Shown: positions 18,588 through 56,001, counted from the first letter of the stretch. The stretch is 61,495 nucleotides of DNA from an uncultured Rhizobium sp. (GCA_964392845.1 CAYMRQ010000002.1:1-61495), one strand, 5' to 3'. A program made the numbers and translations. Notes: generated from the sequence alone by a model not told the origin.

Positions 18588-18672
18588 TTGTCATGCCGGC
18601 GAAGGCCGGTATCCACTGATCCGCGGCACGAGCGGCCGAGGGGTGGGTCCCGGCCTCCGCCGGGACGACGAA
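18588..18672. repeat. REP-like element, family A (two hairpins)
   Basis: gtcatgccggcgaaggccggtatc ... ggtcccggcctccgccgggacgac. Confidence 0.8.
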
Positions 18673-18690
18673 TGGATTGAGGACCGAGCC

Positions 18691-30585: not shown

Positions 30586-31203
30586 TCATGGTCGCAAGGC
30601 GTGCTTTGCCCGCCCCCGATAGTATTGGAACATCACGGCAGCCAGCGCGATGGTCCAGAAATTCAACAGGTACAGCGTCCACAACAACAAGCAAACGGCG
30701 TAGATCGTGAGATAGGCCACGAACGCCGCCAGCGCCAAACTGAGGAGCGCCGCACGCCGCGCCATTCCCCCGTGCCAAAAAAGAAAAGGGGCCGCAACCG
30801 CCGCCACCAACAGCGCGGTCACGATGCTGATCAGGACCAGAAAGGTGGCGGTTGCCACGTTGCCGGCCGGGTCGTCGACCAGGGTGCCGATGCCGTAGTT
30901 CAACGGATTGGCACGATCACCCAGAAACTGCCAGAGCGACAGGTTCCACGGGCTTTCCGGAACGAACAGCGCGTTCAGATCGAAATAGCGCCGGTCAAAG
31001 CGAGCGTAAATCAGGGCGACTCCGAGCGCTATCCCCAGCAATTTGGCGACCGCGGTAACGAGCGGAACCTCGAAAAAATCGTCGGGAAGCACTCTCCGCT
31101 TGATGCGGCCGGCCAGCTTGATGGCGACGATCGGGAGCGCTACGACGAGCGCTATCTCAAGCGCGGCGCGGGCGATGGCAACAAGGCCGCCAATATCGCT
31201 CAT
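30586..31203 (-). CDS. Multi-pass membrane protein, uncharacterised
   Basis: 205 aa with 5-6 hydrophobic segments. No motif recognised. Confidence 0.55.
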   Translation of the reverse strand: MSDIGGLVAIARAALEIALVVALPIVAIKLAGRIKRRVLPDDFFEVPLVTAVAKLLGIALGVALIYARFDRRYFDLNALFVPESPWNLSLWQFLGDRANPLNYGIGTLVDDPAGNVATATFLVLISIVTALLVAAVAAPFLFWHGGMARRAALLSLALAAFVAYLTIYAVCLLLWTLYLLNFWTIALAAVMFQYYRGRAKHALRP

Positions 31204-36871: not shown

Positions 36872-38272
36872 TCAGAACAGGAGGGTGGTCCTGAGGCCGA
36901 GCACCAGCGCATTGCCGATGGTGCCGGTGCCGGTCGGGTTCGCCACGTTGCCGCCGGGATGGATCACGTATTGCAGATCGGGCTGAACCGTCCACCCCGC
37001 AGCGATGCTGGCGCTGTAGCTCAGCTCGAGGACGGCTTCGAGGTCGCGCACCGCGGTGGGCGGACCCGCGGCGCGGTCGGCGCGCGCGGCAGCATCACTG
37101 ATCTTGCCGTAGGCAAAGCCGAGCGTCAGCACATCATCGGGCCGGTCGGCAAGCGGTGCCTTGAGGCCGATCCCGCCATCGACGTACCAGGACACGAGAT
37201 TGCGATCGGACGGAACCCCGCCCGCACGGACGAACACATTCAGACTTTGATCCTCGTTGCCGGGCCGGCGCCACACCATCTGGTCCGCGATCCCGTATAT
37301 GCCCCAGTCGCCGGAACGATCGAGGACGCCGGTAAACTGGTTCAAGAAGGTCCCCGTCTCGCGCCAGCCGGCAAGCTTGTAGGTACCGGGCAATCCTGTC
37401 GCCGTCTTCTCCGAATTCAGGGCATATTGCGCCTCGCCTAGCCACAGGGTGCCCCCGCTGAAGCTGAAGGTCGTGCCATTCCGGTTACAAAGTTGCGGAT
37501 TGCCGAAGCAGCCCTGACCGCCCGGATTGCCGCTGAACACGGCAGCGTGCAACGTCACGTCGGACGCGGGCTTTACCTGAACGCGAACACCGGGAGTCGG
37601 CAGCGGATAGGCCGGGCCGCCGGCCGTCATGTTGGCCGAGGTGATCAGCGGAAAGCCGAACGTGCTGTTGATCAGATTGCTGGCGGTATCACTGATCGCG
37701 AATTCGTCATCCGCCGCGAGCTGGCCGACGCGGATCGAGAGCCGATCGTCGAAGAGGCTTTGGTCAAGCCAGAGCTTGTAAAGCCGCACTGCCGGGAGCG
37801 CCTCGATGCCACTCGCCACCATCAAATTGCCGCCGAGCAGATTGCGCGACGCGCCGCGACCGTGCACGTCGATCGCATTGACGTGCGCCCTGGCACCCGA
37901 CCAGCCGGCGAGCTTGTCGAGATCGACGTGGAGCGAAACACCGACCTGCCCCTCATAGACGAAACCCCGCCTAACGCCGCCCGAAACCACCCCCAGCGTT
38001 TCGCCGATATAGCTGACGCCGAGTTTGATCCCGGTGGCAGCCAACCCCGTGCGCAGACCGCCCAAGTCGCCGCCGAGCAGCTTTGGCTCGGTTGGCTGGT
38101 CGGGCTCGGCAGCCTGGCTGGGCTCGTCCGCCCGGCCGGGCTCGGTAGACTGGCTGGGTTCGGCAGCCTGGCTGGGGTCGACGGATTCGGCCGCCAGCGC
38201 GGCGGTGCTTAGAAAAATCAGCGCAGCCGCCGGCAGAGTGCTCAGGCCCCATCGCATTGTCGCGAATACCAC
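36872..38272 (-). CDS. OprB-family (carbohydrate-selective-type) porin with a Pro/Glu/Ser/Gln-rich N-terminal linker
   Basis: GIKLGVSYIGETLGVVSGG...LYKLWLDQSLFDDRLSIRVGQLAADDEF, ending in the aromatic residue F typical of beta-barrel proteins. A signal peptide is present. Confidence 0.8.
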   Translation of the reverse strand: MVFATMRWGLSTLPAAALIFLSTAALAAESVDPSQAAEPSQSTEPGRADEPSQAAEPDQPTEPKLLGGDLGGLRTGLAATGIKLGVSYIGETLGVVSGGVRRGFVYEGQVGVSLHVDLDKLAGWSGARAHVNAIDVHGRGASRNLLGGNLMVASGIEALPAVRLYKLWLDQSLFDDRLSIRVGQLAADDEFAISDTASNLINSTFGFPLITSANMTAGGPAYPLPTPGVRVQVKPASDVTLHAAVFSGNPGGQGCFGNPQLCNRNGTTFSFSGGTLWLGEAQYALNSEKTATGLPGTYKLAGWRETGTFLNQFTGVLDRSGDWGIYGIADQMVWRRPGNEDQSLNVFVRAGGVPSDRNLVSWYVDGGIGLKAPLADRPDDVLTLGFAYGKISDAAARADRAAGPPTAVRDLEAVLELSYSASIAAGWTVQPDLQYVIHPGGNVANPTGTGTIGNALVLGLRTTLLF

Positions 38273-38306
38273 GTCCTTTCTCCCTCTTCCGGAACCTGCG
38301 GTGATC

Positions 38307-41300
38307 CTAATACGCTTCCGAGCTGCGGCCGATCCAATGCGCCTGCAGCCGCGCCAGCGGCTTTGCGCCGAGCTTGAGAAAGAGGACCGGCGTCAGCACC
38401 GCGTCGAGCAGGGTGGCGCTGATCAGACCGCCGAAGATGACCACCGCCACCGGCGCCAGAACCTCCTTACCGGCGCCGGCGCTGCCCACCATGATCGGGA
38501 TCAGGGCAAGACCGGCACACAGCGCGGTCATCAGCACCGGCGTCATACGCTCCAGGCTGCCGCGCAAGATCATCTCGCGCCCGAAGGTCTCGCCTTCGTG
38601 GAGCACTAGATTGATGTAATGGCTGATCTTGAGGATGCCGTTGCGCGTGCTGATGCCCGCCAAGGTGATGAACCCGATCGCGCTGGCAAGCGACAGCGTG
38701 CCGCCGGTGATCCGCAGAGCAATGACGCTGCCGACCAGCGCCAATGGCACATTGGCCATGATGATCAGGGTCAGCACCGTTGAATTGTAACGAGAGTAGA
38801 GGATCGCAAAGATCAGCGTAAGCGACCCCAGCGACAACACGCCGATCTGCATCATCGCCGCCTTTTGCGCCTTGTAATCGCCTTCGATGCTGAAGAAGTA
38901 CCCGGGCGGCAGGTTGAGGCGGACGATCTCCTGCGCGATGCTCGCGGTGATCGCCGCCATATCCGACCCATCGGTATTGGCGAGAATGGCGATGCGGCGC
39001 TGGGCATTATCGCGAACGATCTCATTGGGCCCGTCGGTGTCGGTAAGCTCGGCAAGCTGGTGCAGCGGAATCCGTCCTGCCGGCGTGTCGATCAGCAGGC
39101 TCCGCAATCCGGTGGTGGTGCGATCGACATCATTGAGGCGGATGACCACGTCGTACCGTCGGCTTGCTTCGACGACCTCCGAGACCACCCGCCCCGCGGA
39201 CAGGGTTTCGAGCGTCCGCGTCAGCGCCGCCGGTGTGATGCCATAGAGCCGCGCCGCGTCCGAGTTGATCCGGATGCGCAGCTGGGGGATGCGGGCCTGG
39301 GTCTCCAGTCTCAGATCGGTAAGCCCGCCGACATTCGCCAAACGGCCGCGGAGCTGGTCGGCGAGCTTTACCAGGTTATCGAGATCCGGGCCGAACAGCT
39401 TGACCGCAAGCTGTGCGGGGAACCCCTCCATGATGGATTCGATCCGGTCGGTGATCGGCGCGGTGATATTGACCACCGCCGGCAGCACGCTGACACGCTT
39501 GCGGATATCCGCGATGATTTCGGAGCGTGGCCGCTGCGACGGCCCGACGCGAACGACGATCTCGAAGTGGTGGATCGGATCGGCATCGAGATCGCGCTCG
39601 GCCCGCCCGGTCCGATGACCGACGACCTTCACCTCCGGTATCTCCAGGATCAGCTTCTCGTTCGTCATCGCCAGCTCGTTCGATTGCGCCAGCGACATCC
39701 CGGGAAGGTAGGTGAACTGCACCAGGTAGGTCCCTTCGTTCAGCGGCGGCAGGGCGGCGCGCGGCAAGTACATAAGGTCGGCAGAAGCGAGGGACACTGC
39801 CGCCACGGCAACCCCGGCGACGGTTTTCCAATGATCGAAGCCCCAAGCCAGGAGCCGCGCGTTCTGCCGCTTGAGCAACCTCACGAGGCCAGCATCGCGA
39901 TGCGCCATGCGCTTCATGCGGGGCAGCAGGTAGTAGGCGAGCACCGGCGTCACGGTGATCGACGTGAACAGGCTCGCAACGATCGAAACGATGTAGGCGG
40001 TCGCCAGCGGCTTGAACATCAGCCCTTCAAAACCCGGCAGGGCGAAGAGCGGGAAAAGCACCAGCAGCACGATCACGGTCGCATAAAAGATCGCCGACCG
40101 CACTTCCACCGTGGCGTCGGAGATGACCTGGAGCGCGGGAAGCGGGTCGCCGAGCTGGCGGTTGAGGCGCAGCCGGCGAAAGATATTCTCGACCCCGACC
40201 ACGGCATCGTCGACCAGCTCGCCAATGGCGATGGCCAGCCCTCCCAAGGTCATCGTGTTGATCGTCTGGTGCAACAGCTTGAAGACCAGGACGGTGATCA
40301 GCAGCGAGATCGGCAGCGCCATCAGCGAGATGATCGTCGTCCGCGCGTTGAGCAGAAAGGCCGAGAGGACGACGATGACGATGACCGCCGCCATGATGAT
40401 CACGTCGGTGAGATTGGCAATCGACTCCTTGATGTACTCGGCCTGCTCGAAGAAGATGTTGTCGGCATGAACCCCGGGCGGCAGGAAGGGCCGCAGATCG
40501 AGCAGCGCCTTCTTGACGTCGCGCGTCAGCTCCAGCGTATTAACCCCGGGCTGCCGCAGGACATTCATGCCGACGGCCAGCTGGCCCATGAACCCGGCAT
40601 CGCCCTGCTTGACGCGGGGGGCGTAGCTTACGGTCGCCACCTCACGCAGCGAAATCGGCCGTCCGTGCGCGTTGCCGACCACCACATCGCGCGCGCCCTC
40701 GAGCAAAGCCTCGCTGTTTTGCGCGCGGCCGAGATTGACGATTTGAAACCGCCTTCCGTACTGGTCGACCGACCCGCCGCCGGTGCTGGTGTTGTACGCG
40801 GCAAGGGCCCGTTCGATCTGGTCGACGCCGATACCGTAGAAATCCAGCCGGCGCGGATCCGGGGTCACGCGCAGCTGGCGGACCTCGCCGCCATACACAA
40901 AGACCTGGGAGACGCCCGGGATCGCCAGCAGGCGAGGCCGGATCAGCCAATCGGTGACATCGCGCAGCGCCATCATGTCGCCATCGTCGGTGGTCAACCC
41001 GATGCGCAGGATCTCGCCGATCACCGACGCCAGCGGCCCCAGCTCGGGTCTCACGTTTGCCGGCAGTTGGGAACGCACCTGGGCGAGCCGCTCCACGACC
41101 ATCTGCCGGGCCCGGAAGATATCGGTGTTCATCACGAAGGCCACCGATACGATCGACAGGCCGGTGCCCGATTTCGAGCGCACCTTTTCAACGCCTTTGA
41201 CCCCCATCATCGCCGTCTCGAGCGGGAAGCTGATGCGCCTTTCAACCTCCTCCGGCGAGAGGCCAGCACTCTCGGTGACGATCCACACGACGGATCGGTC

Positions 41301-41426
41301 GATTTCCGGCAGCGCGTCTACCGGCATATGCCGCAATTGGATCGCGCCGACGACGATCAACACGGCGGCGCCGCATAAGACGAATATCCGATGGATCAGG
41401 CTCTGCCGGATCAGATACGCGAACAT
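38307..41426 (-). CDS. CusA/CzcA-family (HME-like) RND efflux permease, paralog 2
   Basis: 1039 aa. By eye it is roughly 60-65% identical to 31370-34492 over the N-terminal 240 aa. The TM4 motif is the same (GGLAIAIGELVDDAVVGVEN). Confidence 0.9.
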   Translation of the reverse strand: MFAYLIRQSLIHRIFVLCGAAVLIVVGAIQLRHMPVDALPEIDRSVVWIVTESAGLSPEEVERRISFPLETAMMGVKGVEKVRSKSGTGLSIVSVAFVMNTDIFRARQMVVERLAQVRSQLPANVRPELGPLASVIGEILRIGLTTDDGDMMALRDVTDWLIRPRLLAIPGVSQVFVYGGEVRQLRVTPDPRRLDFYGIGVDQIERALAAYNTSTGGGSVDQYGRRFQIVNLGRAQNSEALLEGARDVVVGNAHGRPISLREVATVSYAPRVKQGDAGFMGQLAVGMNVLRQPGVNTLELTRDVKKALLDLRPFLPPGVHADNIFFEQAEYIKESIANLTDVIIMAAVIVIVVLSAFLLNARTTIISLMALPISLLITVLVFKLLHQTINTMTLGGLAIAIGELVDDAVVGVENIFRRLRLNRQLGDPLPALQVISDATVEVRSAIFYATVIVLLVLFPLFALPGFEGLMFKPLATAYIVSIVASLFTSITVTPVLAYYLLPRMKRMAHRDAGLVRLLKRQNARLLAWGFDHWKTVAGVAVAAVSLASADLMYLPRAALPPLNEGTYLVQFTYLPGMSLAQSNELAMTNEKLILEIPEVKVVGHRTGRAERDLDADPIHHFEIVVRVGPSQRPRSEIIADIRKRVSVLPAVVNITAPITDRIESIMEGFPAQLAVKLFGPDLDNLVKLADQLRGRLANVGGLTDLRLETQARIPQLRIRINSDAARLYGITPAALTRTLETLSAGRVVSEVVEASRRYDVVIRLNDVDRTTTGLRSLLIDTPAGRIPLHQLAELTDTDGPNEIVRDNAQRRIAILANTDGSDMAAITASIAQEIVRLNLPPGYFFSIEGDYKAQKAAMMQIGVLSLGSLTLIFAILYSRYNSTVLTLIIMANVPLALVGSVIALRITGGTLSLASAIGFITLAGISTRNGILKISHYINLVLHEGETFGREMILRGSLERMTPVLMTALCAGLALIPIMVGSAGAGKEVLAPVAVVIFGGLISATLLDAVLTPVLFLKLGAKPLARLQAHWIGRSSEAY

Positions 41427-42275
41427 CGTTGGTCAGCGCGGCTCGGCCGCCGCATCTCCCGGCGCGGATGGCGCCCCGCCGACAGCCGCGAACCCGCCGC
41501 GTTCCGACCGCAGCACCACGTCGAAGGATGCAGCAATTGGCGCCACCGCGATCGGGCACTGCGGCCAAGCCGGAGTTCGCGCACACGCCTTTGGAGGCGC
41601 CCGAAGAGTGGCCCCTCGCGCCAACGCGGTACCTCCCCCAATCACTGGATCGCGAGCGCTCAAACCGAGTATCCGGGCGCCGAACGGCATCGAGCCCTCA
41701 CATGCTGCCGACGATAACCCAATGATAAACCCCCAGCAAGTTGTCGTGGCCACGGATGGCAGGGGGGCCGCCCGCCGCCGGTATCCTTGCCGCGCCACAA
41801 GATTTCGCTCGAGGCGTTGATCAGGCCAGGAGGTGACCAGGCTCCGTTTTTGAGTGGACTCATGTCCGCGCCCCTCCTAGGTTTCCGATGACCGCTCGCT
41901 GATCGAGGAGGCCAACGCGGTCTGCCGAGCAGCGGGCTTGTCGCCGGGCCGATCAATCTCGAAAAGACCCAGAGCGATCCCATGCCGAGAGTGCAGCGCC
42001 ATGCCGGCATTGGGCGGCGGACTGGTGAAACTAGCCCGCCGCGTGGTCCGATCCTGCCGGTCCGGTTCGGCTCGCGACACCATTGGCCCAGACCGGCGAT
42101 GGTCCGCCGCCGATATGGGGTAAGTCCAACGATCGCTTCGGCGTAGGGCGCCGTCCGCCTGGAAGACAACGGGCCGGCGAGTTGCATGAGGCTGTACATT
42201 CGCGGGAGTAACCTGGTGGCAACCAGCATCAAGAAGGTGCGTGTCGGTCCGGTCAGTCTGCTTCACGCCAGCCGG

Positions 42276-43424
42276 ATGGCGACTGCAGGCGTCGGTCCCG
42301 CGCTGCTCTGCGCGCTGATCATCATCGCTGTCGGCTGGGCCGGAACGGCATCGGCGCATCAGATGAACCTGTCCAACGCCCGCATTGCGGTGGCGCCCGA
42401 TCGCTCGGTCACCGTCGAGGTCGCGATGAAGGGCAACGACGTGGATCGCATCGTCGGGACCAAGATTTTTGACGACAGCAGCGGGCTCGTCCGCCCGGAA
42501 GCGGTCGCCGCGTCGGCGCCATCGATCGCGAGCTATATGACCGGGCATGCGATGGTGCTGGGCAAGGACGGGACGCTCTGCCGCCCGGGCGTGCCCGGGG
42601 TAACGCCGGACGAGGACGGCGTCATCGTCCGCGTGAAGTGGGATTGCGCCGGCGTCGAGGATCCCCTCGTCTACCGCTCCACGGTGCTGACGGACACCTA
42701 CCCGGAGGCGCGCCAGGTCGTGCTGATCGGCACTGGCGACGCGCAATCGCAGAACCTGCTCGATGCCGTGCGAACCGACCTCCCGCTGACCGGGGACGCT
42801 GCCGAGATGGGGCTATTCGCGGTCATCCTCAGGTATGTCGGCGCCGGGATGGAGCACATCTTCATCGGCTACGACCACATCGCCTTTCTGATTGCGATCA
42901 TGCTCTGGGCGCGTCGCTTGCTGCCGGTCGTCAAGATCGTCACCGCCTTCACGATCGCGCACTCCATAACGCTGTCGCTGGCCGCCACCGAAACCCTGAT
43001 GATTCCCAGTTCGATCGTCGAGCCGGCGATCGCCGCGTCGATCGTCTATGTCGCGCTTGAGAACTTCTTTTCGCGCGAGATCGACAAACGCTGGCGCATC
43101 ACCTTCCTCTTCGGTTTCATCCACGGCTTCGGCTTCGCGAGCGCGCTCCGGGAATTCGGCCTGCCCACCGGCGCACTCGTTCCGGCATTGGCGTCGTTCA
43201 ACATCGGGGTGGAGATCGGGCAGATCGCGATCGTGTCGATCGCTTTGCCCGTGCTGCTGGTGGTCGATCGATTGGTCGCCTCGCGTGGTTGGATAGCACG
43301 CGGCGTCCGAGCGCCGCAGGCGGTTTACGCCCTCTCCGGCGTGATCTGCCTCCTCGGCGCCTACTGGTTCCTGGTCCGCACCATTCTACCCGAGCCGGCA
43401 TGGGCGCAGATTCTCGGCCAATGA
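42276..43424 (+). CDS. HupE/UreJ family (type 2) membrane protein with a periplasmic N-terminal domain
   Basis: Signal ...GWAGTASAH. The C-terminal half has GMEHIFIGYDHIAFLIAIML...AFTIAHSITLSLA...FGFIHGFGFASAL...FNIGVEIGQI. Start chosen at MATAGV (ATG 42276). Confidence 0.8.
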   Translation: MATAGVGPALLCALIIIAVGWAGTASAHQMNLSNARIAVAPDRSVTVEVAMKGNDVDRIVGTKIFDDSSGLVRPEAVAASAPSIASYMTGHAMVLGKDGTLCRPGVPGVTPDEDGVIVRVKWDCAGVEDPLVYRSTVLTDTYPEARQVVLIGTGDAQSQNLLDAVRTDLPLTGDAAEMGLFAVILRYVGAGMEHIFIGYDHIAFLIAIMLWARRLLPVVKIVTAFTIAHSITLSLAATETLMIPSSIVEPAIAASIVYVALENFFSREIDKRWRITFLFGFIHGFGFASALREFGLPTGALVPALASFNIGVEIGQIAIVSIALPVLLVVDRLVASRGWIARGVRAPQAVYALSGVICLLGAYWFLVRTILPEPAWAQILGQ

Positions 43425-43488
43425 TGCCGATGGTAAGCTGTCGGCGCCGCCGGGCCGCCGCAGCGCCCCTCACAGACCCGCGGTGGGC

Positions 43489-43872
43489 TCAAATCGCCCA
43501 GCGACCCACGGCGGCGGGTTTGCCTGGGAACTCGATCACGACAACGATGCGCGAGCCTGGCCCCGCAGTCACCCCGATTTTGCCCGTCATCATGTTGCCG
43601 TCGCCGTCGGATGTGCCCGGCTCCAACACGATTGTCGCCTTCTCCTGACCCACGAGCACCGTTGCTCTGCCCTTGGCCTCCTTGGTGCCGACAGGGGCGT
43701 CGCCTTTCTGCTCGAAGAGGAAGACCTGCAGCTGGGTTTCCTTGACGACCAGCTCCATGTAGTAATCCCCCGCATCGGTCGTCGGGCCGCCATGCGGCCC
43801 CGGGCCCTCATGCGCGAAGACCGTTGCGGGCCATGCCAGCAACAGGCAGGCGGCCAGGATCCTGCCAAGCAT
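43489..43872 (-). CDS. Small periplasmic His-rich protein (possible metal-binding/chaperone-like)
   Basis: Signal MLGRILAACLLLAWPATVFA is followed by HEGPGPHGG and a beta-rich body. The pattern resembles the N-terminal module of the adaptor at 34499-36583. Confidence 0.6.
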   Translation of the reverse strand: MLGRILAACLLLAWPATVFAHEGPGPHGGPTTDAGDYYMELVVKETQLQVFLFEQKGDAPVGTKEAKGRATVLVGQEKATIVLEPGTSDGDGNMMTGKIGVTAGPGSRIVVVIEFPGKPAAVGRWAI

Positions 43873-43878
43873 CGAGCA

Positions 43879-43977
43879 CTCGCCTATCTCTACCGCGATC
43901 GAAACGCGACCGAACGCATGTTCAGGTGGTTCAACGGTTTCGGGCGTATTGCCACCCGATATGAGCGCGAAGCCTAA
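43879..43977 (+). mobile_element. IS5-family (DDE) transposase C-terminal remnant
   Basis: It translates to LAYLYRDRNATERMFRWFNGFGRIATRYEREA*. The Y-x-x-RN-x-x-ER-x-F-x-x-x-K-x-F-R-R-IATRY-[DE] block is the conserved end of IS5/IS427-group transposases. No upstream part or inverted repeats are visible. Confidence 0.7.
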
Positions 43978-45215
43978 TTCGACGCTGCGAGTTGCTCAAG
44001 CGCCTGCGACATTACGGTCGCGATCGCCTTGTCGGTGGCAAGACGGACGCTGGCATTCTTCAGCCACTCCGCCGCCACCAGTGCCGCCTCATCCTCCAGC
44101 AGCACGAGTTGGTGCACGGCCGCTTCGAGCTGGCCCTGATCGAGGCTGCGTGCGGCCAGCGCGATGACTGCGGCGTTGCGATCAACCGCCGCCCCCGCGG
44201 AGGCAGTGGTCGTGAACAGCGACTGCACCCAACCCCAGGCTTGCGCGGTGATCGGCGGCCGGTTCGCCGCGGCCACCGCCGCCAGACGGGGGACTAGGAC
44301 GGCGGTGAAGTTATCGCGAAGCTCCGCGACCGTCGCCACCCCTTGATCGGCGTCGGCAGCAAGTCCTTTGAGGGTGGTCAGGAGATCCGCATTCTGGCCA
44401 GCCATCGCCTGCGCCGCGACAACCTCACGGGTGAACGGGTTTCCGGTCCGGGTCAGGTCGCGCAGCTGCAAGGCTGCCAGGAAGAACTTCTCGGGCCTGT
44501 GGTCGACTTTCTGCAACACGCCGATATCGGCCTCGACCGCGCCGAGGCGGGCGGTCAGGATATCGTTGAGGTCTCGTTCCGTTGCGGCGAGCTTGTCCTG
44601 AACCGTCTTCAGATCGCCATCGAATGTGGCCAACCTCGCGTCGAGCGCGTCGGCGCGGGACGCCGCCATTCGATCGGCATCCCCCGCCGCCGCGGCAAGA
44701 CGCTGATTTGCTTGCCTGAGGCCCGCTTCAACCGCATCGAGCCGCCGCGTCGCCGAGCCGCTTCCGACCACCGTCTCGACCGCCTCGAGACGAGCGGCGC
44801 CGTCAGCCGCATTGCTTTCGAGGGTGGCAATCGATTGCGCCGCCGCAGCCAGCCGATCGTCGATGTCGGCGCGACTTCCGGTTACCAAATTGACGATCTC
44901 GGAATCGCCCAGCGTTTGGGTCAGCCATGAGCGTGCCGGCGGCGGCATGACGGCCGACACAGCGATGAGGACTGCGAGAAATGCCAGCATCAGCGCCGAA
45001 ACCGCGAGACCGCGCCCGGGTGCGTTCCGTCGCAAGGCTCCCGACGCGGCGGATGAAACCGCTTCCAGGCCGAGCAATTCTTTGTTGCCGGGCGCCAGGG
45101 GTGCATTGTCCTGCGTCGGGACGGCGGCCGGGCGCAGGCTGCCGCTGGGGAACTGCCCGGCAAGCGTGGCCAGTGCCGCTTCGTCTACACCTGGTATCGG
45201 CCGCTTGCGGCTCAT
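43974..45215 (-). CDS. Mic60/mitofilin-like membrane protein (TM + long coiled coil + mitofilin-type C-terminal domain)
   Basis: TM LAVSALMLAFLAVLIAVSAV and an Ala/Asp/Leu-rich coiled coil. The C-terminus is ARSLDQGQLEAAVHQLVLLEDEAALVAAEWLKNASVRLATDKAIATV. The start overlaps the parA-like stop (ATGA). Confidence 0.65.
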   Translation of the reverse strand: MSRKRPIPGVDEAALATLAGQFPSGSLRPAAVPTQDNAPLAPGNKELLGLEAVSSAASGALRRNAPGRGLAVSALMLAFLAVLIAVSAVMPPPARSWLTQTLGDSEIVNLVTGSRADIDDRLAAAAQSIATLESNAADGAARLEAVETVVGSGSATRRLDAVEAGLRQANQRLAAAAGDADRMAASRADALDARLATFDGDLKTVQDKLAATERDLNDILTARLGAVEADIGVLQKVDHRPEKFFLAALQLRDLTRTGNPFTREVVAAQAMAGQNADLLTTLKGLAADADQGVATVAELRDNFTAVLVPRLAAVAAANRPPITAQAWGWVQSLFTTTASAGAAVDRNAAVIALAARSLDQGQLEAAVHQLVLLEDEAALVAAEWLKNASVRLATDKAIATVMSQALEQLAASN

Positions 45216-45913
45216 GTCAGTTCAACCTGGCGAGCAAGTTTTGTTACGTGGGCTGATGGCCGGACCCGCAACAGCCACTCGACCTCCTTGGCCAGCAACG
45301 CGACCTCCGCCGCCGCCGTGCTCGACGGAGAAAGGACGGTCGGCGAGGCGCCGTGAAAGGTTGCCTCCTGAAACAGCACGCGGTCGGTCAGCTGGGCAAC
45401 GAGCGGGTTGGTCTTGAGGGCGGCAAGCTGGGCGCGGGCGTGCGTCGCGACGGCCGATCGCTTTACCCGACAAAGAAATGTATGCGCCGGAATGGTTCGG
45501 CGGGTCAGCTGCGCCGCACTCTCGACGATCTTGCAGGTACGCGCCGCTTCGAAGACGTTGGCCTCATCGGTCATCGCCGGGATCAATACCAGATCGGCCG
45601 CGCCGATGGCAAAGACCATTGCCTGATTGCCGAACCCGGCACAGTCGACCAGCACAAGGTCGCGGCCGCGCGCCAACTCGCCGATCGTCGGGATGATCGC
45701 GTACTCGTCGAGTTCGGTCCGCAGGGTCATCTCCGACAGGACGTTGCCCTTGGCGTGCCAGCGGGTCAGCGTTCGATTGGGATCCGCATCGAGGAGGGCG
45801 ACCTTTCGTCCGGCTTTGTGCCAATAAACCGCGAGGCAGGCGATCGTCGTCGATTTCCCCGCCCCTCCCTTGGCAGTGGCGGCGACCAGGACCTTCGCCA
45901 TCGGATCTGCCAT
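45212..45913 (-). CDS. ParA/MinD-family P-loop ATPase
   Basis: Deviant Walker A KVLVAATAKGGAGKSTT, LLDADPNRT and the VLVDCAG switch region. 233 aa. Confidence 0.88.
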   Translation of the reverse strand: MADPMAKVLVAATAKGGAGKSTTIACLAVYWHKAGRKVALLDADPNRTLTRWHAKGNVLSEMTLRTELDEYAIIPTIGELARGRDLVLVDCAGFGNQAMVFAIGAADLVLIPAMTDEANVFEAARTCKIVESAAQLTRRTIPAHTFLCRVKRSAVATHARAQLAALKTNPLVAQLTDRVLFQEATFHGASPTVLSPSSTAAAEVALLAKEVEWLLRVRPSAHVTKLARQVELT

Positions 45914-46433
45914 CTTACACCAACCGCCGCTTCATTTAGGACAACCAGCGCCGATAAGAATGTAGATCGATCTTCCCTTGCCAATCGGACAATCTGACTG
46001 ATCAAGGCCAAACGAACACCGTCGCCAAGTCTTTGACCAAAGACATTCGGCGAGATGCGGTGCCAATACTGGCCGAAATCCCCGATGCACCACTTTGCCC
46101 TCCTGATTTGACAACTTTAGCATGGGTCCGGCGGCACAGCGAAGCGTTTTTGGGTGACTCGCGAAACCGGCCGGGGCAACGACGGAGAGCAAAAAATGTG
46201 TACGATGGCCGTTGGCATCGTCAAGGAGTGATCGCCCCTGCATCGCGCTTGTCGAGAGACAACCGGATCGGTATGGATCGGATTACCTTGCTGACCACGG
46301 AGCTGCGCCGAAGGGGCCCGCCCGAGCAGGGGATCTTGCCGTGTGCGACGCCCCGATTGGTGCAGGGCCATGCCGAAGGCGCCGCCCGAGCGAGGGCGCA
46401 AATGACGGAGCAAGCAATCGCAGCGTGGGTGCG

Positions 46434-47651
46434 ATGGGGATGGCGATGCCGATATTTGGGCCGGTATTTGGGCCGATACTTGGAAAGCAAGGACAGAGGT
46501 TCCGAAGGAGGCGCGTAACCCTCGCGGCACTCGGGCTGGCGCTGCTGGTGATCGCGGGGCTCGCCGGGTGGTCGTCGGCAATGCCCGCATCGGCGCAGCC
46601 GAAGCAACCGGAAGCCCGCTCCGATGTTGTCCCCGGCGGCGGCGAGCAGGCGACGCCGCCAAGCGTCGATCTCAGCGACCGCCAGCAGCTGCTGATCGTC
46701 GGCTCAACCACCCTGGAGGATGTCACCGACGCGGTAATCGAGCGCTTGCGCCGCGATTACGAGATGCCGGAGCCGACCAGGCGATTCGAAGGCACGAGGG
46801 TGGGCATCGCCGCGTTTTGCGCCGGCATCGGTCCCGAACATCCGGATATCGTCGCGGCGACCGACCGGATGAGCCACGCCGAGTTCGAGACCTGTGTCGA
46901 GAACAACGTGCGCGATGTCATCGAGGTCAAAATCGGCAAAAGCGCGGTCCTCGTCGCCACCAAAAAGGGCGATCCCGTCTTCAACCTGACGCCGCGGATG
47001 GTCTATTTCGGGCTCGCCGAGCAGATCCCGATCAATGGAGAATTCGCGGTCAATCCGAACAAATCCTGGAACGAGGTCAACAAGGACGCGCCGGACCTGC
47101 CGATTAACGTCATCATCCCGGCCAAGGGCTCGGGTACGCGCAGCTTCTTCGACGACAACTTCATGCAGGGCGGCTGCCGCCACGTTAAGGCGATCGACGC
47201 CATCTTCGCCGCCGCCGACAGGGTGCCGCTGTGTATTACGCTGCGCGATGACGGGCTGGTCAGCCAGCCGGCCGAAAACCAAATCGTCGACGCGCTGACA
47301 AAGGCGCCGCGGGGAACCCTGGCAGTCGTCGCCTGGCTGGTCTATCACAGGAACGAAGACAAGCTGGAGGCGCTGCCGATCGACCGCGTCCCGCCGACCC
47401 ACGAGAACATAGGAAGCGATACTTACGAAATGAGCTCGACGGTACGGTTTTACTTCAAGCGAGCGCATATGCGGAACAAGGCCGGGCGCGGCGTGGTGCG
47501 CGGCATCCGCGAGTTCATGGCGGAGATCATCAAGGACGAGGCGTCCGGTGAGGAGGGCTATCTCGAGAAGCTGGGCATGGTGTACCTGGAGCCGGACGAC
47601 CGGCGCGCCCAGCGAGCCAATGTGCGCCGTCTGAAGCGGTTCGCACCGTAG
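46434..47651 (+). CDS. PstS-like (PBP_like_2) periplasmic substrate-binding-domain protein with an N-terminal TM/signal anchor
   Basis: LLIVGSTTLEDVTDAVIERL...IIPAKGSGTRSFF is the PstS-type fold signature. The start is uncertain (ATG 46434 or nearby). Confidence 0.65.
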   Translation: MGMAMPIFGPVFGPILGKQGQRFRRRRVTLAALGLALLVIAGLAGWSSAMPASAQPKQPEARSDVVPGGGEQATPPSVDLSDRQQLLIVGSTTLEDVTDAVIERLRRDYEMPEPTRRFEGTRVGIAAFCAGIGPEHPDIVAATDRMSHAEFETCVENNVRDVIEVKIGKSAVLVATKKGDPVFNLTPRMVYFGLAEQIPINGEFAVNPNKSWNEVNKDAPDLPINVIIPAKGSGTRSFFDDNFMQGGCRHVKAIDAIFAAADRVPLCITLRDDGLVSQPAENQIVDALTKAPRGTLAVVAWLVYHRNEDKLEALPIDRVPPTHENIGSDTYEMSSTVRFYFKRAHMRNKAGRGVVRGIREFMAEIIKDEASGEEGYLEKLGMVYLEPDDRRAQRANVRRLKRFAP

Positions 47652-47755: not shown

Positions 47756-48889
47756 TCAGTGGAAGGTGACGATCGTCGGGTTGGAAAACTTGCTGCGGGT
47801 TACCGGTACATCGTCGCGCCAGGCGAGGTGGAAGTAGAGGGCCGCGATCTCGGCGTAATTCTCGAAGTTCGCCGCTTCCTCGCGCGCCCTCCGTTCCAAC
47901 CGGGCAGCGGCTTCCTTATCGCCCGCGAGCTTCTTCGCCTCCGCCCACAGGGCAAGCGCCGTCGAGCTTTGTGGATTGGCCTCGACCGCCTTCGCCAACA
48001 TTTTGTCGGCGCCCGGAAGGTCGCGCAGGCCCATCCGCGCCGCCCCCCAGGTCATATAGGCGGTGGCGAGCAGCACCTTGCTTGTCGGCGGCGCGATGCG
48101 CACCAGCTCCGCCATGCGATCGGCCGCCTTGTGGTAGTCGTTCAACTGTATATCGGTGAGCGCCGCGTTGAGAAAGGCCACCGGGTTGGTGGGGTCACCG
48201 AACATCGCGGCGTCGAACGCCTTCCGCGCGGCTTGCGGATCGTTTTTGAACAGCGCGATGAGGCCGAGCAAATTGTCGAACAGCGCCCGGTCAAAGCTGG
48301 TGGGGGTCGCCGGCAGCAGCGACTTGGCCTGCTCGATGAGTGCGACGGCGTCGGTGAAGTCATTGTCCGCCGCGTGCTTTTGCAGCAGGTGGAGCGCGGT
48401 GGAGTAGGGCGCAAGCTGGGAGGCGCTCCACAAGGCGCAGCGTTGCACAAAGGCGATCAGGACTTCTCCCTCATGGGGGATCATGACTTGATGGATATTT
48501 CCTATCACGTGGCTATAGCCGTGGACCAGGCCGCGCAGCGCGCCCTTGTCGACAAACAGAGTGAACCGGATGTTGTCGGGCTTGAACCCGAACTGGCGTT
48601 GGAGGGCAAAGGCGATCTTCTGCGCGTTGACGGCCTCCGCCAGCGCCATGCCGAGCCCCTGCTCGTCTCGTGACCGGATTTCCGGCGGCCGAACCAACGA
48701 CAGAGTCGATGAGATCGCGTCGAACTGGTCCTGGAATTCGGCCGCAAGCGTGTTCTCGTCTACGGAAATGGTCTCGATCTTCGGCGCGATCGACACTTCG
48801 ATGGAGACGCTGCCGGAATTTATCACCGAGTCGGCCGCCAACAGGCCGAGCGCGAGCATTACTGCGATGGCAATCGTCGTCAAATCCAC
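47756..48889 (-). CDS. Membrane-anchored TPR-containing protein (tandem paralog A)
   Basis: N-terminal TM MDLTTIAIAVMLALGLLAA and C-terminal TPR-like helices (DPQAARKAFDAAMFGDPTNPVAFLNAAL...). It aligns along its whole length with 49117-50259. Confidence 0.75.
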   Translation of the reverse strand: MDLTTIAIAVMLALGLLAADSVINSGSVSIEVSIAPKIETISVDENTLAAEFQDQFDAISSTLSLVRPPEIRSRDEQGLGMALAEAVNAQKIAFALQRQFGFKPDNIRFTLFVDKGALRGLVHGYSHVIGNIHQVMIPHEGEVLIAFVQRCALWSASQLAPYSTALHLLQKHAADNDFTDAVALIEQAKSLLPATPTSFDRALFDNLLGLIALFKNDPQAARKAFDAAMFGDPTNPVAFLNAALTDIQLNDYHKAADRMAELVRIAPPTSKVLLATAYMTWGAARMGLRDLPGADKMLAKAVEANPQSSTALALWAEAKKLAGDKEAAARLERRAREEAANFENYAEIAALYFHLAWRDDVPVTRSKFSNPTIVTFH

Positions 48890-49116: not shown

Positions 49117-50259
49117 TCAATGTAAGGTAACGACCCTCGGGTTCGAGAACTTGTTGCGGATGATTGGTTCCTTGTCACGCCAGGAAAGGTTGAAGTAGAG
49201 GGCCGCGACCTCCTCAAAGTTCGCGAAGGTCGCCGAGGCCTCGCCCGCCAGAAGGTTCAACCGGTCGGCAGCCGCTTGATTGCCCTCTAAACTCTTCACC
49301 GCCGCCCACAGGGCAAACGCTGCAGCGCTTTGCGGGTTGACCTCGACCGTCTTCGCCAACATTCGGTCGGCGCCCGGGAGGTCGCGCAGAGCTAACCGCG
49401 CCGCTCCCCAGGTCATGTAGGCGGTCGCGAGCAGCACCTTGTTTTCCGGCGGCGCGATACGCACCAGCTCTGCCATGCGATCGGCCGCCTTCTGATTGTC
49501 GTCCAGCAGCAGATCGGTGAACGCCGCGTTGAGGAAGGGCACCGGGTTGGTGGGGTCCGCGAACATCGCGGCGTCGAACGCCTTGCGGGCGGCTTGCGGA
49601 TCGTTCTTGAACAACGCGACAAGGCCGAGCAAGTTGTCGAACAACGCACGATCAAAGCTGGTGGGCGTCGGCGGCAGCAGCGCCTTGGCGTCCTCGACGA
49701 GGGTGACCAGTTCGGTGAAATCCTTGTCGGAGGAGTGTTTCTGCAGGAAGTAGAGTGCGGTGGAATAGGGCGCGAGTTGCGAGGCTGCCCACAAGGCGCA
49801 GCGTTGGGCGAAGGCGATCACGGTTTCACCGGGATCGGGGACCATGACCTGACCGAAATTTCCGAATCGCTGGCTCTGGCCGCTGACAAAGCCGCGCAGC
49901 GCGCCGTCCTGGGAGAAGAGGGTAAACCGGATCGTGTCGGGCTTGTATCCGAATTCGTGTTGCAGGGCATAGGCGATGTTCTGCACGTTGACCGCCTTGG
50001 CCAGCGCCATGCCGACGCCCTGATCGCGCTTTGACCGGATTTCCGGGTGGGCAATCGTGGGAACCACCGAAAAGGTCTGGACGATCGTGTTGAGCTGATT
50101 CTGGAACACCGCCGCGAGGCTGGGCTCGTCGATGGAAATTTTCTCGATCCTTGGCGCGATGCCCACTTCGACGGCGACGCTGCCGGCTTTGATGACGGTG
50201 TCGGTCGCCAACACACCGAGCGCGAGCAATACCGCAACGGCGAGCGTCGTCAAATCCAT
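49117..50259 (-). CDS. Membrane-anchored TPR-containing protein (tandem paralog B)
   Basis: MDLTTLAVAVLLALGVLAT... Blocks identical to paralog A include LFDNLLGL.ALFKNDPQAARKAFDAAMF.DPTNPV and ADRMAELVRIAPP. Start set by alignment to the paralog. Confidence 0.75.
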   Translation of the reverse strand: MDLTTLAVAVLLALGVLATDTVIKAGSVAVEVGIAPRIEKISIDEPSLAAVFQNQLNTIVQTFSVVPTIAHPEIRSKRDQGVGMALAKAVNVQNIAYALQHEFGYKPDTIRFTLFSQDGALRGFVSGQSQRFGNFGQVMVPDPGETVIAFAQRCALWAASQLAPYSTALYFLQKHSSDKDFTELVTLVEDAKALLPPTPTSFDRALFDNLLGLVALFKNDPQAARKAFDAAMFADPTNPVPFLNAAFTDLLLDDNQKAADRMAELVRIAPPENKVLLATAYMTWGAARLALRDLPGADRMLAKTVEVNPQSAAAFALWAAVKSLEGNQAAADRLNLLAGEASATFANFEEVAALYFNLSWRDKEPIIRNKFSNPRVVTLH

Positions 50260-50723
50260 GTTACCGATCCCGACAACATTGGGCCGTCCGGGCAACCATA
50301 GCGAATGACAGCGGGGTAATAAATATCAGGTTGGGCGATGACTTCCAGCGTATGCCCCCTCTTACGTATGTCCGGGCGAAGCGTGGTGAGCGGCATCCGC
50401 CGGCTCATGGCCGGCGATCACACGGATGGGAGGGGGCGAGGGCGTCTTTTGGCTGAACTCGGCGCATCGGATTTTTTCAGCTTGCGGCTTGCGGAGAGCA
50501 ACGCTGCCGGGTAATGGATCACCTTGACGAGGTTGCCCTACTCGCCCTTAAAGGGGCACCGGGCGGTGGAGCGGTGGCCGGATACGCCCGCCAGCCGCGG
50601 ACAGGGGCGATAGCGATATCGATGCCAGCGCGTCTCGCGATCGCGGGATGGGTGATCGACCGCGGCGCCAGCACCAAACCCGGGCTGCGATGCAAGTTGC
50701 GGCTGTAATGGGAGACTGGTTCG

Positions 50724-51353
50724 ATGACCCGCTACACCAGGGGAGTGCGGCTGCTACAAGCTGTCGCGCTGATCTTGACTGTATCCCACCCGCGTGATGC
50801 CGCAGCGGGGCTTGAGGACGTGGCCAACTCGCTGCAGGAGACGGTCTCGGACTTCATCAATGACTTCTTCCCATCGTTTACCAAGTCGACGGTGGCGTCG
50901 GTGACGAAGGTGAAGCCGAAAACCGTCGTTCATGGCATGGACGTCGGGGGCCATTTCTTGGAACACCTCTCAGATGCCGGCTACGCGTTGAGCGAGATCC
51001 ACATGTCGGTCGGCCTGATCCCTGATGTCAAGCTGACGTTCCAAATTGTCCGGGAGCTGTCGGAAGCCGACCGCACCGCGCTCGAACGCAGCCTCGAGAT
51101 CGACGACAAGCGGGTGCCGGGAGTGACCGCGATGGCCCACCGGCAAATCATCCGCACCCTCCTGGCGATCTCCAAGTCGGAGGAGATGCGGGTCAGCAAG
51201 TTGGTCATCGGCATCCTGCCCCTGCCTTCAGCGGAATTCTCCATCGAGCCTGCCGAAGCGCCGCTGAGCGAGGAGCACGGCGCCCTATATCGTGCGATCA
51301 AGAGCAAGACGGCCGAGAAGGCAGAGGATCACAAGAAGCCGCCGCCGAAATAG
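50724..51353 (+). CDS. Hypothetical secreted protein
   Basis: 209 aa with a signal-like N-terminus (LLQAVALILTVSHPRDAAA) and balanced composition. No motif recognised. Confidence 0.5.
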   Translation: MTRYTRGVRLLQAVALILTVSHPRDAAAGLEDVANSLQETVSDFINDFFPSFTKSTVASVTKVKPKTVVHGMDVGGHFLEHLSDAGYALSEIHMSVGLIPDVKLTFQIVRELSEADRTALERSLEIDDKRVPGVTAMAHRQIIRTLLAISKSEEMRVSKLVIGILPLPSAEFSIEPAEAPLSEEHGALYRAIKSKTAEKAEDHKKPPPK

Positions 51354-51386: not shown

Positions 51387-52175
51387 CTATCCCGACGGGG
51401 ATTTCGCGAACGCCACATAGGCGCTCGGCGCGATCCCGTAATCGCCGCCGAACGGATAGCTCAGCTTCAAGATCACCAGAAAAATCGACATCGTCACCGT
51501 TGCCACCAGGGTCGACATGATAAGCGGCGCAACGAGGCTCGGGCTGCCGAAGAACCAGGGGAAGATGATACAGATCAATGTGCCGACGGCCGCAACCCCC
51601 CACAAGAGCGGGGTCAGCGCACCGAGACTGAGGCGAATTCGGGCGCCGCGATGGTTGCGCACGACATCGAGCATCTGCAACGAATATTGAAAGGCCGATA
51701 TTTCCTTTTCGGTCTGCGGCTCTATTGCGAGATACGTATAGTACAAGTCGTCGAGAGCGGCCGAGCTCTCGAAGCTCAGCAAACGCGCCTGCATCCGCGG
51801 CCACTCGAGGTCGGCAACCGAACTTGCATAGTCGCGCAACTCCCTGCGCAGCTGGTTTCTCGTGTCTCTCGGATAGGCGCTGGCGATGCGATCGAGCGTG
51901 GTCAGCGCATTGACCTCGACGATGATATCCGAGCGTACATCATCGTATTTCTGATAGACGCCAAACAGCAGCAATCCGATGTAGCCGGCATACACGGACG
52001 ACAGAAACGCATATTTGAAGCCGCCGATGATGTTGTTGACAACGAGTTGACCGGGAGTGACGTAATAATTGACGATCAGCGTGCCCAGTACCGTGATTGC
52101 GATGCCGCCGCCGATCGTAAGCACGGCGCCGGTGCCGACCGGAAGGTCATTCAGCCATTGTATGAGGCGCATCAT
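51387..52175 (-). CDS. DUF4239-like membrane protein (paralog A)
   Basis: It has two N-terminal TMs, a helical middle region (EVNALTTLDRIASAYP...LRDYASSVADLEWP) and two C-terminal TMs ending LKLSYPFGGDYGI.PSAY. It is colinear with 52698-53492. Confidence 0.65.
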   Translation of the reverse strand: MMRLIQWLNDLPVGTGAVLTIGGGIAITVLGTLIVNYYVTPGQLVVNNIIGGFKYAFLSSVYAGYIGLLLFGVYQKYDDVRSDIIVEVNALTTLDRIASAYPRDTRNQLRRELRDYASSVADLEWPRMQARLLSFESSAALDDLYYTYLAIEPQTEKEISAFQYSLQMLDVVRNHRGARIRLSLGALTPLLWGVAAVGTLICIIFPWFFGSPSLVAPLIMSTLVATVTMSIFLVILKLSYPFGGDYGIAPSAYVAFAKSPSG

Positions 52176-54837: not shown

Positions 54838-55647
54838 TCAGGAGCGCTGCGCCAAAATCCCCACCCGTGATTGGGCCACGGTTTCGAGGAATTCGAGAAC
54901 CTGGTTCGCGGCCAGGCGGCTTTGCACCGCCCTGATCCAAGGTTCGGCAACCGCGGCCTCCGGGCCCGTCAGCTTGCCGAGCGCGGCCGCCGCCCCGGCC
55001 AGATCTCCGCTATCGAGATGGGTCTTCGCCTCCCACACGATCGTGGAGGCCGGCCGCGTATCGTGGAGCCAGTGCGCGAGTGCGTGCAGGCGCAGCGCCG
55101 CGGCCGCGGCAATGACGGCGCGGTCGAACCGGCTCGACTGCGTGCCGATGACATCGTTCAGCACGATCGCGTTGGCGAAAGTGACGAAGCTCGCCTGCAA
55201 CTCCGGCAAAACCGGCACCCCCTGATCGGCGTAGGCGCTGAGCATCTCAAGCGCCTGATTGACGTCCGGCTGGCGTGGCATCACGCCTCTGACCAGGGTC
55301 AGCTCATTCCTGAAAGGCTCGTTGCTCAGCAGAGCCGGACGCAGCTGCGCGACGCCAAGAATCATGAATTGCGCCGAGCCGGGATTGCCATAGATCGTCG
55401 GCGACCACTTTGGTCCGGTCATCGCCATAACCAGGCTAAGCACCGCGAGGATGAGCGCAGTACGCGTGAGGTCCCGCAACCCGGTTGCGGTGATGCCGGT
55501 AGTCGCCGGGCCGACGCCGGCACCGCCGGTCGCCGCCGCTGGATCGGTCGCGGCGGGGTTCGCGGAAGGATTGTCGGGCGGCATGGGTTCGCCGTCGCGG
55601 CGGACGCCGTTGGTCGTGCTGCCCGTTGGCTCCTGGTCAGATGTCAT
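54838..55647 (-). CDS. Membrane protein with a Pro/Ala-rich N-terminus and a mitofilin-like C-terminal segment
   Basis: TM ALILAVLSLVMAM. The C-terminus THLDSGDLAGAAAALGKLTGPEAAVAEPWIRAVQSRLAANQVLEFLE parallels the C-terminus of 43974-45215. Confidence 0.55.
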   Translation of the reverse strand: MTSDQEPTGSTTNGVRRDGEPMPPDNPSANPAATDPAAATGGAGVGPATTGITATGLRDLTRTALILAVLSLVMAMTGPKWSPTIYGNPGSAQFMILGVAQLRPALLSNEPFRNELTLVRGVMPRQPDVNQALEMLSAYADQGVPVLPELQASFVTFANAIVLNDVIGTQSSRFDRAVIAAAAALRLHALAHWLHDTRPASTIVWEAKTHLDSGDLAGAAAALGKLTGPEAAVAEPWIRAVQSRLAANQVLEFLETVAQSRVGILAQRS

Positions 55648-56001
55648 GATGCACCATCTTCCAATCAGATCGGCGTGTTCATCCTCATAGGTTGGATGGT
55701 CATGAGGTCCGTTATTGGGGGCGGACCGGCGCGGGGATACAAGCCTTTATGCGCCAAAAGGCGGTGGGTTCCAAGGGCGTTTCGTCGGGTAATGGCGGCC
55801 GATCCGGCGGCCGGCGACAGCCACTCCCGCGACTGGCCGCCTGTCCGTCGCGTCGCCGCCGCCCTCGCCGCGCGAGGGGTGACAGGGCTAGCGCCTTGCC
55901 TATAAGCTTTCTTCGACCGGGCGATCCTGTCGCCGATGCCCGGAGCCTGTGCGCCCCGGGGCTCCCTGGCCGATCGGCGACCATTTGAACTGGCTGTGGC
56001 G

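Follow-up and report, generated by a model that had tools for sequence, protein, structure and literature searches.

ATPases of the ParA/MinD family act on cargos that include DNA, protein microcompartments, chemoreceptor arrays, flagella and the divisome, and the N-terminal tails of ParG, ParB, McdB and MinE dock on their respective ATPases and stimulate them. Several family members localise envelope machines; BcsQ, TadZ/CpaE and VirC1 license such a machine to assemble at a fixed site. ParA1, ParC and FlhG are captured by HubP. ParA/MinD partners contact the ATPase by a positively charged N-terminus, the remainder of the protein binding the cargo (10.1101/2022.06.09.495121). Here, we describe a gene pair on a contig from an uncultured Rhizobium sp. 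(GCA_964392845.1, CAYMRQ010000002.1:1-61495), in which a ParA-type ATPase is coupled to a membrane protein related to the crista organiser Mic60. The whole stretch of 61,495 nt is called the window, all positions are window-wide unless a related locus or contig (labelled L001 and so on) is named, and the earlier interpretation from which the analysis started is referred to as the sequence-only reading. With some reserve, we consider it probable that the pair stems from a type Ib (ParF/ParG-type) partition cassette and works as a two-component positioning module, a Mic60 paralogue having taken the place of the DNA-binding adaptor.

The resemblance to type Ib systems concerns both genes. As in ParF-ParG of TP228 and in the pREB5 pair, the ATPase is small (about 210-230 aa), has a deviant Walker A motif and is collinear with ParF; as in type Ib systems, the partner gene lies immediately downstream, often overlapping, and its product starts with a basic N-terminal peptide that is common to the pREB5 adaptor. 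Type Ib systems differ, however, in that the cargo part of their partner is a DNA-binding ribbon-helix-helix (RHH) domain, in place of which the present partner has a transmembrane (TM) segment followed by a coiled coil and a mitofilin domain; moreover, the surroundings here are a chromosomal locus of membrane genes without centromere repeats, and the ATPase stays under the ParA_partition cut-off. The McdA-McdB, PpfA, ParC, FlhG and MipZ systems likewise have a ParA-type ATPase beside a cargo-specific adaptor, for which a charged N-terminal peptide has been proposed (10.1101/2022.06.09.495121), and McdA is itself a weak partial match to the ATPase (E about 8e-7, N-terminal P-loop region). In contrast to McdB, the adaptor would here be an integral inner-membrane protein with its bulk in the periplasm, and the presumed cargo a membrane structure, not a protein shell or array. 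A cytoplasmic ParA/MinD ATPase tied to a membrane-embedded partner or machine is also found in the HubP, BcsQ, TadZ(CpaE) and VirC1 systems, but no type IV secretion, cellulose-synthase, pilus or flagellar genes are nearby in the present case and the partner belongs to the mitofilin family. Finally, the partner shares with canonical Mic60 an N-terminal TM segment, a coiled coil, a C-terminal mitofilin domain and a predicted periplasmic bulk, and differs from it by an extra 67-residue tail, predicted to be cytoplasmic and carrying a ParA-type peptide, by its obligate pairing with ParA, and by the lack of hem/orf52 synteny and of an SLVTVRR-type motif. ParA/MinD two-component systems are known, whereas a mitofilin partner and this class of cargo are not described in the papers found; in particular, our literature search found no description of a ParA/MinD ATPase dedicated to a Mic60-type membrane-shaping protein.

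Both genes are on the minus strand. The ATPase (233 aa; 45212..45913), identified from its open reading frame (ORF), Pfam and NCBIfam matches and alignment with ParF, has the motif KGGAGKST at residues 15-22 (45848..45871), in agreement with its classification as a ParA/MinD-type protein in the sequence-only reading. Downstream lies the gene for a 413-aa Mic60-like membrane protein (43974..45215), made up of an N-terminal peptide, a linker, a TM segment, a helical spacer and the mitofilin domain. The two ORFs were found where that reading had placed them, as was the coupling that it had reported: the junction reads ...CTGACATGAGCC... / ...GAACTGACATGAGCCGC..., where the ATG (45215-45213) and the TGA (45214-45212) have four bases in common, giving an ATGA stop/start overlap at 45212..45215. 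The same 4-nt overlap is present at L002, L101 and L109, and the genes are elsewhere joined by an 11-nt overlap or separated by gaps of 2-34 nt.

In Pfam, the ATPase matches VirC1 (best, 50.2 bits), CbiA, AAA_31 and MipZ, while its best NCBIfam model is ParA_partition (NF041546), at 116.8 bits and hence under the 180-bit equivalog cut-off. Its residues 7-214 align with residues 2-204 of TP228 ParF/ParA (5u1g_D, 4dzz_A; E 1e-13). In the alignment of its clade (A2; 69% mean column identity), K15, G16, G17, A18, G19, K20 and T22 are invariant and the C-terminal tail is variable: past about residue 215 both length and composition vary, several members stop directly after the ATPase core, and no conserved C-terminal amphipathic membrane-targeting helix is present in A2. 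Because of this last point the ATPase is not MinD-like, and membrane binding in the manner of MinD was rejected. A ParA homologue search gave 1215 matches, the 120 listed being 63-96% identical; across the clade, whose named members come from Stellaceae, Rhodospirillales, Magnetospirillum sp. WYHS-4 and Gemmobacter, identities span 48-96%. The clade is discrete, with at least 48% identity inside versus at most 35% to the next genomic ParAs and at most 43% to plasmid ParAs, and a general locus search with the ParA alignment was dominated by generic ParAs of 25-35% identity.

The Mic60-like protein starts with a 24-residue peptide, MSRKRPIPGVDEAALATLAGQFPS (45144..45215, minus strand), which is a putative cytoplasmic ParA-docking and ATPase-stimulating element. 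In a conservation profile from 19 aligned homologues, no other region is as well conserved as this stretch (residues 1-24, consensus MSRKxPIPGVDEAALAxLAGQFPS): the mean pairwise identity is 0.77 in the peptide, 0.64 in the mitofilin domain (234-413), 0.55 in the TM region (67-92), 0.44 in the helical spacer (93-233) and 0.28 in the Pro/Ala-rich linker (25-66). The peptide is kept in ParA-linked proteins even where the mitofilin domain is only 25-35% identical to that of the window protein, as in Magnetospirillum sp. WYHS-4 (MTHKHEIPGVDPEALDDLAKQFP) and in L011 (MANRKSIPRIGEDALAELARQFP). Among cluster representatives, it is found on 11 of the 13 top-scoring long proteins and on none of 12 canonical-type Mic60 proteins. 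It is likewise missing from all four short mitofilin paralogues compared from the loci of the pair. To judge from these comparisons, the peptide tracks ParA rather than the mitofilin domain.

A second occurrence of the peptide comes from plasmids. The nearest plasmid relatives of the ATPase are ordinary type Ib cassettes, in which a ParA of about 210 aa is followed by a small protein of 96-231 aa, usually with an overlap. The best plasmid relative of the ATPase, ParA of Acaryochloris marina pREB5 (42.8% identity), has downstream of it a 96-aa hypothetical protein, an RHH-like putative adaptor (L124 2156-2446, corresponding to NC_009930.1 11753-12043), which starts MANKRNIPAVDVAALGQLAEELPS and is identical to residues 1-24 at 14 of 24 positions (58%; BLASTP E 1e-5 for the pair). 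The rest of this protein weakly resembles RHH_10 (E 0.0018) and Omega repressor (E 0.0098), both below cut-off. The DUF3102 partners of Azospirillum plasmid ParAs start MARKRQLESIDADEL / MARKRQLESIDADELKRML or MARKLTPRIVTADEV / MARKLTPRIVTADEVSDIL, and a tblastn search of plasmids with a 29-aa peptide gave noise only (E about 6). Overall, the peptide goes with this ParA branch and is joined to different cargo-binding domains, in keeping with the rule for ParA/MinD partners cited above (10.1101/2022.06.09.495121).

Association of the two genes was followed in both directions. Searching with a DNA pattern for MTDEANVFEA, a ParA motif specific to the clade, gave 26 species-representative genomes. 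Nearly all are alphaproteobacterial metagenome-assembled genomes (one is labelled Chloroflexi), but two cultured organisms, Terasakiella sp. PR1 and Magnetospirillum aberrantis SpK, are included. One of these 26 loci (L092) is the same contig as L001, where the pair is present, and four others are cut at the stretch end; at all 21 loci with a complete downstream ORF, this ORF matches a hidden Markov model (HMM) of the family's mitofilin C-terminus, and with L001 the pair is present at 22 of 22 assessable genome loci. In the reverse search, with a DNA pattern for the N-terminal motif, 12 loci were found, nine of them already known through ParA, and ParA is directly upstream in 11 of 11 assessable loci; among these are the new L118 and L120, whose ParA shows 64-65% identity, and the remaining locus, L119, is truncated at its edge. 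Homologues of the Mic60-like protein are 37-88% identical and almost all metagenomic. On the contigs of the 71%, 56% and 42% homologues, the ParA gene is directly upstream, overlapping by 4 nt in two cases and by 11 nt in the third; for three distant ParA members (65-71% identity), the next gene encodes a mitofilin-type protein of 450-480 aa, and the linkage recurs in metagenome contigs at ParA identities of 65-91%. The survey of linkage thus shows the pair kept at more than 35 loci in diverse Alphaproteobacteria. It is a conserved module, and the adjacency of its genes is far beyond chance; a joint function can be argued because two-way adjacency over ParA divergence down to 48% is hard to explain otherwise. 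In one case (L007 10001-11327, on a 274-kb contig), the Mic60-like gene is split into ORFs of 303 and 145 aa by a frameshift or assembly error, possibly from nanopore polishing.

The assignment of the partner to the mitofilin family, proposed by the sequence-only reading, is borne out by Pfam: PF09731 matches residues 236-405 (profile positions 435-613 of 614) at 39.8 bits, above the gathering cut-off of 27.4 bits, with an E of 3.7e-10, and homologues are annotated with the same family in precomputed records. For residues 225-413, AlphaFold2 (AF2) with an alignment of 62 sequences (A5) gave a confident, all-helical model whose mean per-residue confidence (pLDDT) is 85.8 and whose predicted TM-score (pTM) is 0.77. 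The top PDB match of the A5 profile is 7pv1_A, a Mic60-Mic19 fusion (E 2.3e-5, last helices only), while a single-sequence phmmer search of PDB with the Mic60-like protein gave no match; the exact window sequence of the protein is absent from the contig collection searched. The mitofilin domain (residues 234-413; 43977..44516, minus strand) is preceded by a coiled-coil-like helical spacer, predicted to be periplasmic (residues 93-233; 44517..44939, minus strand), whose length varies among homologues, with indels in their alignment (A1). A low-confidence model places helices at residues 115-148 and 155-237, so that the long coiled coil announced earlier has its counterpart in a long predicted helix at about residues 115-237. 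The TM segment announced with it is present as well, as a single span at about residues 68-90 (44946..45014, minus strand; hydropathy, flanking charges, and a model helix at 68-88); it does not lie at the extreme N-terminus, since a 67-residue hydrophilic tail comes first, and the conservation of the first 24 residues of this tail had gone unnoticed in the sequence-only reading.

This TM segment is predicted to be N-in because of the charge of its 15-residue flanks, which is +2 on the N side (two K/R, in addition to the invariant R68) versus 0 on the C side (one K/R). The tail of 67 residues would accordingly be cytoplasmic, and the spacer and mitofilin domain periplasmic, which is the same orientation as that described for bacterial Mic60 (10.1101/2022.06.14.496148). 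In such a topology, a cytoplasmic ATPase could reach the tail only, as the rest of the protein would lie beyond the membrane. The tail predicted to be accessible to ParA has the peptide of a putative plasmid partition adaptor, which strengthens the earlier suggestion that the pair may serve the positioning of a membrane structure rather than DNA partition. None of the three outcomes named as refuting that suggestion was seen: the mitofilin match is above threshold, the pair is conserved, and neither parB nor parS adjoins it.

How does this protein relate to canonical Mic60? In Alphaproteobacteria, canonical mic60 sits between hemC-hemD (upstream) and orf52 (downstream) (10.1101/2022.06.14.496148), so that the heme-gene neighbourhood given for it in the sequence-only reading is correct; hemC, hemD and orf52 (HemY_N) are absent near the pair, in the window and in every related locus. 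An SLVT[VI]RR-type motif, a signature that is our own reading of the sequences and has no published definition, is present in 12 of the 12 canonical-type representatives inspected and missing from the window protein and its ParA-linked relatives. Of the 537 related clusters in a 50%-identity library, only 16 reach a score of 1e-30 or better; as these are few and the carriers are taxonomically scattered, the ParA-linked gene seems to fit an accessory Mic60 paralogue. A homologue search with the mitofilin-domain profile returned almost only a family of short paralogues, and no canonical Mic60. Paralogues of mic60 and orf52 are found in the magnetosome island, where their disruption leads to fewer, larger magnetosomes (10.1101/2022.06.14.496148); the use of Mic60 paralogues by a specialised membrane organelle thus has a precedent. 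Nothing ties the Mic60-like protein or the short paralogue to magnetosome proteins, since neither has a match in NCBIfam.

A conserved neighbourhood, with the pair as its hub, extends over about 22.9-60 kb of the window, and almost all of its products are membrane or envelope proteins. Neighbours were counted over 37 related loci, most of them only 8 kb long. The two most frequent are a membrane-anchored PstS-like binding protein (PBP_like_2; 46431..47651, plus strand; 19/37 loci), divergent from parA, and a 209-aa protein with a hydrophobic N-terminal leader, RLLQAVALILTV (50724..51353, plus strand; 19/37 loci), for which no Pfam or NCBIfam family was found. The PstS-like protein scores 99.2 bits in Pfam, and just 58.6 against a cut-off of 206.6 for the NCBIfam PstS family. 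Between its gene and parA, the parA leader (45914-46230, minus strand) is non-coding and conserved as DNA among close relatives, with a hairpin and T-run (46221-46202) and an AGGAGGG...GTG element; an Rfam search of this leader gave no match. A 205-aa four-TM protein without family (30586..31203, minus strand) is conserved at 15 of the 37 loci, and two bestrophin-like (PF14023) four-TM proteins (51387-52175 and 52698-53492, minus strand) at 8, with one to three copies in L002, L008 and L011.

Two small multi-TM proteins of the DUF6524 family (54354-54773, minus strand, and 55936-56439, plus strand; 12-14 of 37 loci) flank a second, short mitofilin gene, an arrangement also found in L005, L007, L009 and L011. 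The product of this gene (269 aa, TM plus mitofilin; 54838..55647, minus strand; PF09731 at 29.8 versus 27.4 bits) lacks the N-terminal peptide, and the gene is not beside ParA, being 9.6 kb from the first mitofilin gene. Such short mitofilin proteins form an abundant family of about 233 aa that shares contigs with the ParA clade, and a separate short gene lies near the pair in L005, L009 and L011; the tblastn count of 20/37 loci for the short protein is too high, as this query picks up the mitofilin domain of the long one as well. Beside the PstS-like gene are two tandem paralogues encoding membrane-anchored TPR proteins of 377 and 392 aa (47756-48889 and 49117-50295, minus strand), with a single TM each, which are kept only in the close relatives L001, L002, L003 and L007 and are not Orf52 by Pfam, as there is no HemY_N match. 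Other neighbours are Sel1 and TPR proteins, SPFH/Band 7, small glycine-zipper proteins, MlaA, resistance-nodulation-division (RND) pumps with a long membrane-fusion protein (MFP) and an OprB porin, to which relatives add Alginate_exp, MlaC and a Na/Pi cotransporter. No paper on this locus was found in the literature, nor anything relevant on DUF6524 or DUF4239.

Several further observations concern parts of this region. A comparison with the syntenic L002 shows additional genes in the window at 36872-43872, which separate the Mic60-like gene from the MFP+RND pair and encode a 127-aa His/Gly-rich secreted protein (43489-43872), HupE/UreJ_2 (42186-43424), a second RND pump (38307-41426) and OprB (36872-38272); they resemble an insertion of metal or efflux genes. 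In L008 (3426-7515; Magnetospirillum sp. WYHS-4), a Na/Pi cotransporter and three bestrophin-like genes precede the pair, all in one direction, an arrangement that may link the locus to anions or phosphate. That the locus serves a membrane domain for handling them is a guess, based on this cotransporter and on the weak PstS-like match. Towards the left end of the locus, two paralogous proteins of about 460 aa (23618-25009 and 27137-28525, plus strand) combine an N-terminal TM with glycine-zipper TMs at the C-terminus and are without a Pfam match; homologues are present in L007, L009, L011 and L016, and the coding signal at 25-27 kb is unclear. Just left of the first conserved gene (Sel1, 22881) lies a tRNA-Ser(TGA) gene (22113-22202, plus strand), overlapped on the opposite strand by a 647-aa ORF that is presumably spurious, and its vicinity showed no integrase gene. 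In the window's left 22 kb are ordinary metabolic genes, for luciferase-like monooxygenases, an MFS transporter, a glutathione S-transferase and hydrolases. A low-GC patch there (16000-18000; 0.56 versus about 0.65) includes a Peptidase_C14/CHAT caspase-like gene (16615-17601, minus strand), which sits among the luciferase-like monooxygenase genes (6605-7696, 8558-9688, 10843-11889 and 18643-19956).

For an ATPase with such relatives, a role in DNA partition has to be considered: the pair could be the partition cassette of a plasmid, a chromid or an integrated element, with the Mic60-like protein tethering DNA to the membrane or with an unseen ParB/parS nearby. The ParA is a plasmid-type (type Ib) one with a sub-threshold ParA_partition match, its nearest named relatives are on plasmids, and the tRNA-Ser gene stands at the left border of the conserved locus. 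Yet the partner, most of which is predicted to be periplasmic, has no DNA-binding domain match in Pfam or NCBIfam (RHH, HTH and ParB included), and the statement of the sequence-only reading that no parB/parS partner is evident holds, no ParB, RHH or HTH gene adjoining the pair and no iterons, palindromes or inverted-repeat arrays surrounding the operon. The sole tandem repeat, 3 x 12 nt at 46448-46483 (GCCGATATTTGG and variants), was rejected as a centromere: it falls within the part of the PstS-like gene that codes for the N-terminus and is single-copy in relatives, the expansion being specific to the window. A small ORF upstream of parA was likewise rejected as a ParB or regulator, as it is not kept as a protein, the window and L002 versions being different proteins with no family match. 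Moreover, the flanks are metabolic, with no rep, tra or integrase gene, neither the window DNA nor the Mic60-like protein has a match among 72,556 plasmids (PLSDB), and the ParA clade is set apart from plasmid ParAs (at most 43% identity). The setting is chromosomal in type, without plasmid context, and a DNA-partition role, already largely refuted, is very improbable. It is also improbable, if less so, that the two genes are co-transcribed and functionally unrelated, the peptide serving membrane insertion, proteolytic control or another cytoplasmic factor, or that the protein is the sole Mic60 of its organism, the gene having moved away from hemCD. Some clade members do lack the peptide; against this explanation stand the obligate two-way adjacency down to 48% ParA identity, the recurrence of the peptide on the unrelated RHH-like adaptor of a related plasmid ParA, the absence of the SLVTVRR-type motif, and the 16 of 537 clusters with scattered carriers, which fit an accessory paralogue.

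In the positioning module that we favour, the first 24 residues of the tail (basic RKR, then IPGVDxxAL..LA..FP) would dock on the ATP-bound ParA dimer and stimulate its ATPase; ParA gradients would form, most likely on the nucleoid, and would space, position and partition Mic60-like assemblies at division, so that a membrane invagination, contact site or compartment built with the envelope proteins of the locus might move along. The physical interaction, the ATPase stimulation, the ParA matrix and the cargo structure are all steps that we infer. Several points weigh against this scheme. In about one third of the proteins linked to ParA, the N-terminus is either degenerate but basic (L093, L101, L106 and L111) or unrecognisable (L099, L100, L110, L114 and L115, the last from Magnetospirillum aberrantis), which implies either fast peptide evolution or another docking mode. 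The ATGA overlap is not universal, given the gaps of 2-34 nt at other ParA/Mic60-like loci, the full-length AF2 model is poor (pLDDT 49.9) and unfit for a fold search, and Foldseek with the modelled C-terminal domain found no solved structure below E 0.7. We also know of no membrane structure in any carrier organism. The same peptide interaction could have another output, in which ParA is not a gradient motor but a recruitment or assembly factor, or a landmark client: the Mic60-like anchor would capture the ATPase, or the ATPase would license an envelope machine at a fixed site, giving recruitment or assembly control instead of equidistant spacing. Linkage and peptide apply equally to this explanation, VirC1 is the best Pfam match of the ATPase, and the locus is rich in envelope-spanning parts (RND pumps, OprB and MlaA, with Alginate_exp in relatives), whereas the closest relatives by sequence are true partition ATPases, namely ParF and plasmid ParAs with small adaptors. 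No sequence feature tells the two outputs apart, and we regard recruitment as somewhat unlikely. As for the cargo of a positioning module, it is possible, and we put this forward tentatively, that the pair segregates and positions a membrane compartment, or a system of envelope contact sites, not described so far, which the conserved locus would build in diverse Alphaproteobacteria; the genes concerned would be those for the two mitofilins, DUF6524, bestrophin-like, PstS-like, SPFH/Band 7, Sel1/TPR proteins and families without assignment.

The conserved and uncharacterised multi-gene locus is present in two cultured bacteria, Magnetospirillum aberrantis SpK and Terasakiella sp. PR1. If the positioning module is real, membrane architecture would join the list of ParA cargos, and a change of cargo would be seen directly, the docking peptide having been kept while the binding domain was swapped from RHH to TM plus mitofilin. 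Should the pair serve a membrane compartment, it would be the first ParA-type motor to partition a lipid-bounded structure through a homologue of the crista organiser. More generally, the pair would provide a genetic handle on the spacing and inheritance of bacterial membrane sites organised by Mic60, and would thereby bear on the evolution of intracytoplasmic membranes and cristae.

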